Below, piece by piece: positions 33,487 to 33,505 of a stretch of DNA of 64,000 nt. A model generated the notes under the pieces. It searched no databases, had not been told where the DNA came from, and saw only the letters and a list, made by a program, of their open reading frames with translations. A program made the translations under genes and the position numbers. Position 1 is the stretch's first letter; every line of letters starts with the position of its first letter. The DNA comes from an uncultured Flavobacteriales bacterium (GTDB lineage Bacteria > Bacteroidota > Bacteroidia > Flavobacteriales_D > JABDKJ01), in the NCBI GenBank assembly GCA_964609215.1, contig CAZSQZ010000009.1, forward strand, positions 16,394 through 80,393. Reading direction: 5' to 3'.

Positions 33487-33505
33487 TACGCAATATATTT
33501 GCGTA
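33487..33505. promoter_or_regulatory. palindromic motif TACGCAATATATTTGCGTA (candidate operator; near-identical copy at 40066-40084)
   Basis: CGCAA-N5-TTGCG inverted repeat. 17/19 identical to TGCGCAATAATTTTGCGTA in the rtcB/WYL divergent intergenic region. Confidence 0.4.

Follow-up and report, generated by a model that had tools for sequence, protein, structure and literature searches.

A conserved palindromic promoter module, probably bound by a WYL-family regulator, accompanies RNA-repair genes in Bacteroidota

An RNA-repair island of an uncultured Flavobacteriales bacterium contains two copies of a 19-bp palindrome, and comparison of related sequences makes it highly probable that this palindrome is the operator of the WYL-family transcription factor encoded beside one of the copies. 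The island lies in a 64-kb stretch of DNA, referred to here as the window, to which all island coordinates refer; L-numbers designate related genome or metagenome loci. A preliminary description of this DNA had drawn attention to the two palindromes and suggested that a shared operator would place rtcB, the regulator, and a tRNA-like RNA with the SPFH gene behind it under one control. Going beyond that description, the comparisons indicate an oriented promoter module of greater extent, in which the palindrome forms just the core: a 23-bp inverted repeat is accompanied by a -7 box and contains a -33 box for the promoter of the regulator. Across Bacteroidota, more than 200 instances are conserved together with their flanks, and the element has a characteristic position, orientation, and association with genes. 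In the mechanism that we favor, the WYL protein would bind the operator, sense RNA damage, activate the RNA-repair promoters, and regulate its own synthesis. We place the probability of this mechanism as a whole at roughly 0.55.

Site 1 (TACGCAATATATTTGCGTA, positions 33487 to 33505) lies between the gene for an Rnl2-like RNA ligase (~33578 to 34225, minus strand) and a tRNA-like RNA of ~200 nt (~33186 to 33392, minus strand). Site 2 (TGCGCAATAATTTTGCGTA, positions 40066 to 40084, within a 23-bp frame at 40064 to 40086) is the operator core between the divergent promoters of rtcB (38641 to 40026, minus strand) and the WYL gene (ATG at 40112, plus strand). The palindromes themselves are assigned to no strand. 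Their sequences, positions, and neighbors agree with the preliminary description, as does the CGCAA-N5-TTGCG repeat that both sites share. This pattern occurs exactly twice in the window, at these two sites, compared with a mean of 0.00 in 100 dinucleotide-preserving shuffles. The two 19-mers share 16 of their 19 positions rather than the 17 first counted. Inspection by eye had turned up no further copies in the island, and a search that allowed three mismatches and a scan with a 23-bp weight matrix likewise detected no third copy in the island or in the rest of the window. The matrix, which was built from related genomes, gave site 2 a score of 31.9 bits and site 1 a score of 20.8 bits, whereas no other position in the window exceeded 5.5 bits. 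Site 1, the weaker and more symmetric copy, is still inside the range of the 85 reference instances (14.6 to 39.8 bits; median, 36.2).

In an AT-rich genome short palindromes are common, and the same 19-mer occurs by coincidence inside a gene of a high-GC phage family. However, a functionless chance likeness of two AT-rich intergenic palindromes is hardly credible, because none of the 100 shuffles reached two copies and because the conserved instances keep the same flanks. A phage origin was also rejected. The 19-nt core had nine hits in 2.9 million viral contigs, seven of them in one coding region of the high-GC phage family, and the viral hits are regarded as chance matches since none had a -7 box or WYL or RtcB neighbors.

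The association between the element and the regulator was evaluated in two sets of loci. The first, regulator-first set consisted of 80 genomic loci that were retrieved by way of the WYL orthologue and extended by at most 10 kb in each direction; copies were counted at a matrix cutoff of at least 14 bits. There were 153 hits on the rtcB side (683 kb) versus 0 on the far side of the regulator gene (698 kb), so that the frequent occurrence at unrelated sites that the preliminary description had named as an objection was not found in the sequence scanned. All but three of the hits (150/153) share one orientation relative to the regulator gene. At least one copy was present in 79 of the 80 loci, where the position orthologous to site 2 is occupied, and loci that lack the exact core have one-mismatch versions at the expected place. 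Among the 44 regulator-proximal copies, 37 have the exact CGCAA-N5-TTGCG 46 to 63 nt before the regulator start codon. Because 48 of the 80 loci have two to four copies, the additional ones confined to the rtcB side, before other units of the island, multiple control points per island are the rule rather than a peculiarity of the window.

The second, motif-first set was obtained by scanning metagenome contigs for the module, which returned at least 120 loci. A WYL homologue was found in 77 of the 120 loci examined, and some island homologue was found in 93; most of these loci have WYL, RtcB, or both. When the loci were restricted to those with at least 3 kb on both sides, the proportion with a WYL gene was 23/28. 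These loci include a diverged regulator clade, at 40 to 46% identity, in which the N-terminal DNA-binding region is almost unchanged. The co-occurrence of motif and regulator thus holds both ways. At the sequence level these results support the suggestion that a shared operator couples rtcB, the regulator, and the tRNA-like RNA and SPFH unit, and one regulator very probably switches the entire RNA-repair island together.

Alignment of 87 instances gave the consensus aCAAA(nn)T - N10 - ACTRCGCAATnATTTTGCGYAGT on the regulator strand. The palindrome in this consensus is a 23-bp inverted repeat, ACTRCGCAA-N5-TTGCGYAGT, with 9-bp arms. The centers of the CGCAA cores are 10 bp apart and therefore both are on one face of the DNA helix, as a dimer of helix-turn-helix (HTH) proteins needs. 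On the rtcB strand, a -7 box of the form [A/C]AnnTTTG follows ~10 bp past the operator. Its offset from the core is -19 in 61 and -20 in 20 of the 87 instances (81/87 in total), a set that was not selected for the box. In flavobacteria the Bacteroidetes -7 box, TAnnTTTG, spans -12 to -5 (PMC9723704). The consensus first T of this box is present in only 6 of the 87 rtcB-direction boxes, the other 81 having a nonconsensus base, and no rtcB-direction promoter in the aligned modules, including both sites in the window, has TTTG at the -33 position.

At site 2 the predicted rtcB-direction -7 box (CACCTTTG, 40049 to 40056, minus strand) would place the transcription start at ~40044, with an 18-nt leader before the rtcB ATG at 40026 and with the palindrome at ~-40 to -22. 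At site 1 the predicted -7 box (AATATTTG, 33469 to 33476, minus strand), at an offset of -20, would place the start at ~33464 and the palindrome at ~-41 to -23. All of these start sites are predictions from box position only.

The inner asymmetry of the operator, AAT-n-ATTTTG, puts a TTTG in its right arm. At site 2 this TTTG (40077 to 40080, plus strand) is the predicted -33 box of the promoter of the WYL gene, with a 20-nt spacer to a predicted -7 box (TAATTTTG, 40101 to 40108, plus strand) and a start at or next to the ATG (40112 to 40113). The Bacteroides consensus is TTTG at -33 and TAnnTTTG at -7 (PMC7366714), and 29 of the 44 regulator-proximal modules have a canonical TAnnTTT box 19 to 20 nt after the TTTG on the regulator strand. 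One operator would thus serve two back-to-back promoters, holding the -33 box of the regulator and occupying the -33 region of the rtcB promoter. An Escherichia coli-type promoter scan listed 24 sites in comparison with 29 expected, a result that is uninformative, as was to be expected for Bacteroidota.

Since the predicted -7 box ends three bases before the ATG, the regulator mRNA would be leaderless or nearly so. The same is predicted for about a third to a half of the regulator orthologues; in a flavobacterium only ~5% of the mRNAs are reported to be leaderless (PMC9723704). The arrangement in Flavobacterium is different (L061, 9228 to 9854, plus strand, and equivalents). There a plus-strand pair of genes has the regulator in second place. 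The plus-strand promoter of the module is predicted to drive first the other gene of the pair, which encodes a ~207-amino-acid protein without a Pfam match, with YHNxxH and FYHD motifs.

An inverted repeat might instead function as an RNA hairpin, either to terminate transcription past the ligase gene, at site 1, or as a signal for processing or stability. Site 1 is 73 nt past the ligase stop codon, a terminator scan lists it on both strands, and the predicted folding energies of -6 to -11 kcal/mol correspond to z-scores of -2 to -3.5. However, there is no U-run on the coding strand, the stem is of modest energy, and it is the sequence rather than the pairing that is conserved. Both half-sites are invariant, and the only variable symmetric position, the flanking purine/pyrimidine pair, shows no base-pair covariation (A-T, 30; G-C, 8; G-T, 31; A-C, 18). 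Invariant arms without covariation fit recognition of each arm by a protein, not a hairpin. Furthermore, site 2 and most orthologous copies are upstream of both predicted starts, in untranscribed DNA between divergent genes, and a fixed distance to a -7 box would be meaningless for an RNA hairpin. For these reasons the hairpin was rejected as a very improbable explanation.

The presumed binder of the palindrome, the product of the regulator gene at 40112 to 41140 (plus strand), is a winged-HTH transcription factor with a WYL domain (Pfam, 5e-11) and a C-terminal WCX dimerization domain (1e-12). The AlphaFold model has helices at residues 2 to 18, 26 to 41, and 49 to 59 and a two-strand wing at the N terminus, followed by confidently modeled WYL and WCX domains. 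Conservation within the protein is highest in the N-terminal HTH region, which is nearly invariant even in the clades at 40 to 46% identity that keep the same operator. According to a Foldseek search with the model, the best structural matches are DriD (E value, 7e-12) and PafBC (2e-10), followed by BrxR and CapW (~1e-5); these four were the only significant structural matches.

It could be argued that another, unlinked transcription factor or an alternative-sigma promoter is responsible and that the WYL gene is merely a member of the regulon. The WYL gene does have the element in front of it, like every other presumed member of the regulon, and there is a gene for an extracytoplasmic function (ECF) sigma factor nearby, at 29283 to 29870. 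We consider this explanation improbable. The WYL gene is the only regulator that is consistently adjacent to the element in both sets of loci (79/80, and 23/28 of the long ones), and conservation of the HTH tracks conservation of the operator. Two invariant symmetric arms suit a dimeric HTH protein, not a sigma factor, and a -35/-10 pair would need more than the 12 nt that separate TTGCG from the -7 box. Control by sigma-54 and RtcR was rejected separately, as the regulator has only WYL and WCX domains, no sigma-54-like site precedes rtcB, and counts of such sites in the window are at chance level.

If the WYL protein is the binder, it would most likely bind as a homodimer, with one HTH on each CGCAA arm. 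The operator would then cover ~-42 to -20 of the target promoter, where the -33 box would otherwise be. Site 1 would drive the tRNA-like RNA and the SPFH gene, and site 2 would drive rtcB and the genes behind it. Site 2 would also let the regulator control its own synthesis, because the TTTG of the right arm doubles as the -33 box of the back-to-back WYL promoter. The WYL domain is proposed to sense damage to nucleic acids, with broken RNA as the most plausible signal. In the manner of DriD, PafBC, and SiwR, the dimer with its ligand would bring RNA polymerase to the weak promoters in the rtcB direction, while occupancy of the operator would concurrently limit the promoter of the regulator. 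Given that the palindrome is the operator, we think it reasonably probable that the regulator is such a ligand-switched activator that also restrains its own promoter.

Activation is favored for several reasons. The spacing from operator to -7 box and the orientation are fixed. The target promoters have no TTTG at -33 and a weakened -7 box, whereas the promoter of the regulator is canonical. The operator covers the -26 region, the region from which PafBC and SiwR act (PMC10693628), and the closest structures, DriD and PafBC, are activators that rank ahead of the repressors BrxR and CapW.

A less likely possibility, although one to be taken seriously, is that the WYL protein represses, as BrxR and CapW do. 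It would bind the same operator, shut off the two back-to-back promoters and that of site 1, and dissociate from the DNA when its WYL domain binds a signal. The operator overlaps the -33 box of the regulator and covers -42 to -20 of the targets, an arrangement well suited to occlusion, and BrxR and CapW are WYL repressors that act on palindromes beside the systems they control (PMC9122601, PMC9186387). A few of the module targets are of a defense type (SMODS/AGS_C, HEPN AbiU2, and HNH). In addition, flavobacterial promoters often have no recognizable -33 box, and the targets could be self-sufficient. Overlap of the operator with the target promoters fits occlusion or recruitment alike. What argues for activation over repression is that activator-dependent promoters more typically show strict spacing and orientation, together with a -7 box whose first base is systematically nonconsensus, and that the structural similarity to DriD and PafBC is markedly higher than that to BrxR and CapW.

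A number of considerations weigh against the activator mechanism. We infer that the WYL protein binds, where transcription starts, that control is by activation and not by repression, and what the ligand is. The fixed spacing could have been inherited through the copying of whole modules. The missing -33 box is weak evidence for activation because flavobacterial promoters show little -33 signal generally; a global flavobacterial analysis recovered no -33 motif (PMC7366714). The AlphaFold model is of moderate quality, with a mean predicted local distance difference test (pLDDT) score of 70 and scores of 50 to 60 for the N-terminal domain, and the sequence similarity to DriD is marginal (E value, ~1e-4). 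Site 1 is a weak copy of the operator, at 20.8 bits. The regulator served to select the genome loci, and the pattern used on the metagenomes contained the -7 box, so that only the offset count in the 87 instances is unbiased for spacing and only the motif-first WYL counts are unbiased for the link to the regulator. About 5 of the 28 long loci selected by motif have no WYL gene in reach. The scans extend over the window and at most 10 kb to either side of related loci, and more distant regulon members or unrelated sites are possible. The ligand is a guess, since damaged RNA is suggested only by the cargo of the islands and by analogy with RtcR. WYL factors whose ligand is known (PafBC, DriD, and SiwR) bind single-stranded DNA, and SiwR does not bind single-stranded RNA (PMC10693628).

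A palindromic operator of a WYL regulator in a divergent promoter is a kind of element that is already known. For example, SiwR of Mycobacterium smegmatis is a WYL activator of the dinS operon that is encoded divergently from its target and has a 19-bp imperfect palindrome (PMC10693628). The likeness to SiwR is one of arrangement: a homodimeric HTH-WYL protein, a shared divergent intergenic region, and an operator over the -26 region of the target. SiwR differs in its phylum, in its role in genotoxic stress, in its sensing of single-stranded DNA, and in its single known operon. In contrast, the element described here is multiplied within its island, is spread over RNA-repair genes, and is built on the Bacteroidetes -7/-33 promoter type.

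DriD of Caulobacter crescentus, the best structural match, binds sites that all lie equally far from the -10 element, in promoters that have no good -35 element (PMC13004042). Its operator is a 20-bp palindrome, and a site in its own promoter suggests autoregulation (PMC9186387, PMC13004042; PDB 8TP8 and 9PFQ). However, the DriD site stops at ~-36, immediately short of the -35 region, whereas the operator in the island reaches ~-20. DriD also differs in that it controls a DNA damage regulon with single-stranded DNA as the ligand, and identity in the structural alignment is 16 to 18%. PafBC, the second-best structural match, is a WYL activator acting on the RecA-NDp promoter of Actinobacteria. 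It governs a multioperon stress regulon, and its motif replaces the -35 element near the -10 element ("sigma adaptation"). Unlike the proposed homodimer, PafBC is a fused pseudo-heterodimer with a nonpalindromic motif, and purified PafBC alone does not bind its site. BrxR and CapW are HTH-WYL-WCX dimers on inverted repeats beside the BREX or CBASS island that they control, and some targets of the module are of a defense type. They are, however, repressors, are structurally more distant (~1e-5), and have phage defense rather than RNA repair as their cargo.

The functional analogue is found in Proteobacteria, where RtcR with sigma-54 controls rtcBA or rsr-yrlBA-rtcBA in response to damaged tRNA (PMC7790460). 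RtcR is likewise a divergently encoded, nucleic-acid-sensing activator for RtcB, sometimes together with Ro60 and tRNA-like Y RNAs. It differs in being a CARF-AAA+ regulator rather than a WYL protein, and no sigma-54 promoter is present here; the cis element of the island is a probable dimer operator within a promoter of the housekeeping-sigma type.

The genes that lie behind the modules point to RNA repair. When 211 modules from all sources were oriented toward their downstream unit and the first open reading frame (ORF) behind each was classified, an RtcB-family gene was found behind 117. The other first ORFs encode a PNKP-type phosphatase (HAD_PNKP; 7 modules), RlaP (6), Ro60/TROVE (3), an Rnl1-like ligase (2), and Hen1 (1), and several uncharacterized families are also among them. 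A second WYL protein is the first ORF behind two modules. Together with the tRNAs and tRNA-like RNAs described below, the module targets are a coherent RNA-repair set. Conflict-type genes, namely, those for a SMODS/AGS_C nucleotide cyclase, an HNH_5 nuclease, and HEPN AbiU2, are occasionally found behind a module (metagenome loci L117, L131, and L206), and there are hints that the regulon reaches into defense functions.

In 32 cases the module is followed by at least 250 nt without an ORF. A T-arm-like motif is found 150 to 310 nt downstream in 27 of these 32 modules, compared with 7 of 160 of the rest. The ORF-free unit in L020 is a normal tRNA-Tyr. In L032, from a Fluviicola genome, the sequence at 7060 to 7185 (minus strand), behind a module at 7310 and next to RtcB, gave a full-length tRNA match (Rfam, 53.7 bits; model positions 1 to 71) whose anticodon loop is extended by a 55-nt insert. 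For a bacterium, a tRNA with such an insert next to a ligase of the tRNA-splicing type is noteworthy.

Site 1 belongs to this class of modules with an ORF-free tRNA or tRNA-like unit behind. Transcription from the site-1 promoter is predicted to yield the tRNA-like RNA first. The fold of this RNA combines an acceptor-like stem and a D-arm-like hairpin with a large insertion and a T-arm (GGTTCGAATCC). Homologues are found behind modules in L059, L077, and L056 and also in L043, as identified with nhmmer, and compensatory changes are present in 23 of the 46 pairs of the consensus fold. Rfam has no family over the palindrome or the tRNA-like RNA. An nhmmer profile of this RNA returned only its five input sequences from all 201 sources, and therefore the family is either narrow or too divergent for sequence search. 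Two T-arm elements between the tRNA-like RNA and the SPFH gene had subthreshold matches, one to YrlA, a Y RNA-like RNA (28.6 bits; 32923 to 33013, minus strand), and one to tRNA (24.5 bits; 32866 to 32961, minus strand). No Ro60 gene is present in the window; Ro60 is found behind the same module elsewhere (L042).

A more specific proposal is that the regulator senses RNA damage such as tRNA halves or 2',3'-cyclic-phosphate ends and switches on a modular Bacteroidota RNA damage response. This response would include the ligases RtcB and Rnl; the end-healing enzymes PNKP, Hen1, and RlaP; Ro60; spare tRNA arrays; and module-driven tRNA-like RNAs, some with anticodon-loop inserts, that would serve as decoys or reporters for anticodon nucleases. 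We regard this proposal as tentative and rather doubtful. Were RNA sensing confirmed, the ligand class would be new for a WYL transcription factor, and the operator would define the regulon genome by genome.

To our knowledge, the induction of RNA repair and the substrates of RtcB-type enzymes are known in some detail only for the enterobacterial RtcR/sigma-54 system, and the WYL family has so far been tied to DNA damage and phage defense. The element would link WYL regulators to RNA repair. In the searchable literature we found no account of this operator or of its spread in Bacteroidota, and no paper that ties WYL regulators to RtcB or RNA repair in Bacteroidota, although an earlier mention of a WYL gene beside RtcB is possible. 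As a sharply defined and easily searched cis-signature, the element marks RNA-repair genes and RNAs of Bacteroidota. The marked set includes uncharacterized protein families (the 244-amino-acid family of this island and 301-, 595-, and 747-amino-acid families elsewhere) and unclassified tRNA-like RNAs. One protein and one 23-bp site also make a testable pair in the cultivable genera Flavobacterium, Kordia, Aquimarina, and Cellulophaga.

All genes and RNAs of the island are on the minus strand, with the exception of the regulator gene. Behind site 2, rtcB (Pfam RtcB, 1.6e-35) is the first gene and is followed codirectionally by genes for a 244-amino-acid protein without a Pfam or NCBIfam match (37962 to 38696), an RlaP nucleotidyltransferase (37204 to 37950), and an RlaP-like protein, also of the nucleotidyltransferase type (36137 to 37207). 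The gene for the 244-amino-acid protein and the two RlaP-type genes probably form an operon with rtcB. The weight matrix found no second module before these three genes in the window, whereas in other genomes (L020, L035, L052, and L053) they carry modules of their own. The 244-amino-acid protein recurs in islands L002, L020, L030, L033, L035, and L038 at 23 to 44% identity and has its own module in L035. Many islands hold a second, distant RtcB paralogue with 27 to 30% identity (L009, L010, L016, L022, L059, L061, L065, and others). In Flavobacterium it is this distant paralogue, not the orthologue of the window rtcB, that lies directly behind a module.

Behind site 1, ~900 nt of noncoding DNA with tRNA-like elements separates the palindrome from the SPFH/Band-7 gene (31451 to 32551, minus strand; Pfam Band_7, 3e-21), which lies downstream of the tRNA-like RNAs and is probably the end of the site-1 transcription unit. 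SPFH orthologues are located 600 to 1250 nt behind modules in L020, L030, L061, and L063. A perfect 10-bp hairpin, AGCTCCTTGC-N6-GCAAGGAGCT, is present at 33428 to 33453, between the predicted site-1 start (~33464) and the conserved start of the tRNA-like RNA (~33392). This hairpin is absent from the homologous loci, in which the leader is only ~20 nt.

Upstream of site 1 and on the same strand as the ligase gene is an array of eight tRNA genes (34243 to 35192, minus strand) for Cys, Tyr, Gln, Leu, Leu, His, Phe, and Arg. The 945 nt between the RlaP-like gene and the array (35193 to 36136) hold neither a convincing ORF nor a copy of the module, and the Rfam hits there are weak; read-through from the rtcB promoter or a promoter of the array's own within this region are both conceivable. 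Arrays of 6 to 18 tRNAs on the rtcB strand occur in ~15 of 81 related islands, among them L003, L011, L016, L020, L023, L025, L028, L030, L037, L039, L045, and L056. On the rtcB side 158 tRNA genes were counted, against 11 beyond the regulator. The arrayed tRNAs may be spares that replace damaged ones. The nearest named relatives of the regulator, at 70 to 76% identity, are from Vicingaceae, Brumimicrobium, Kordia, Fluviicola, and Crocinitomix.

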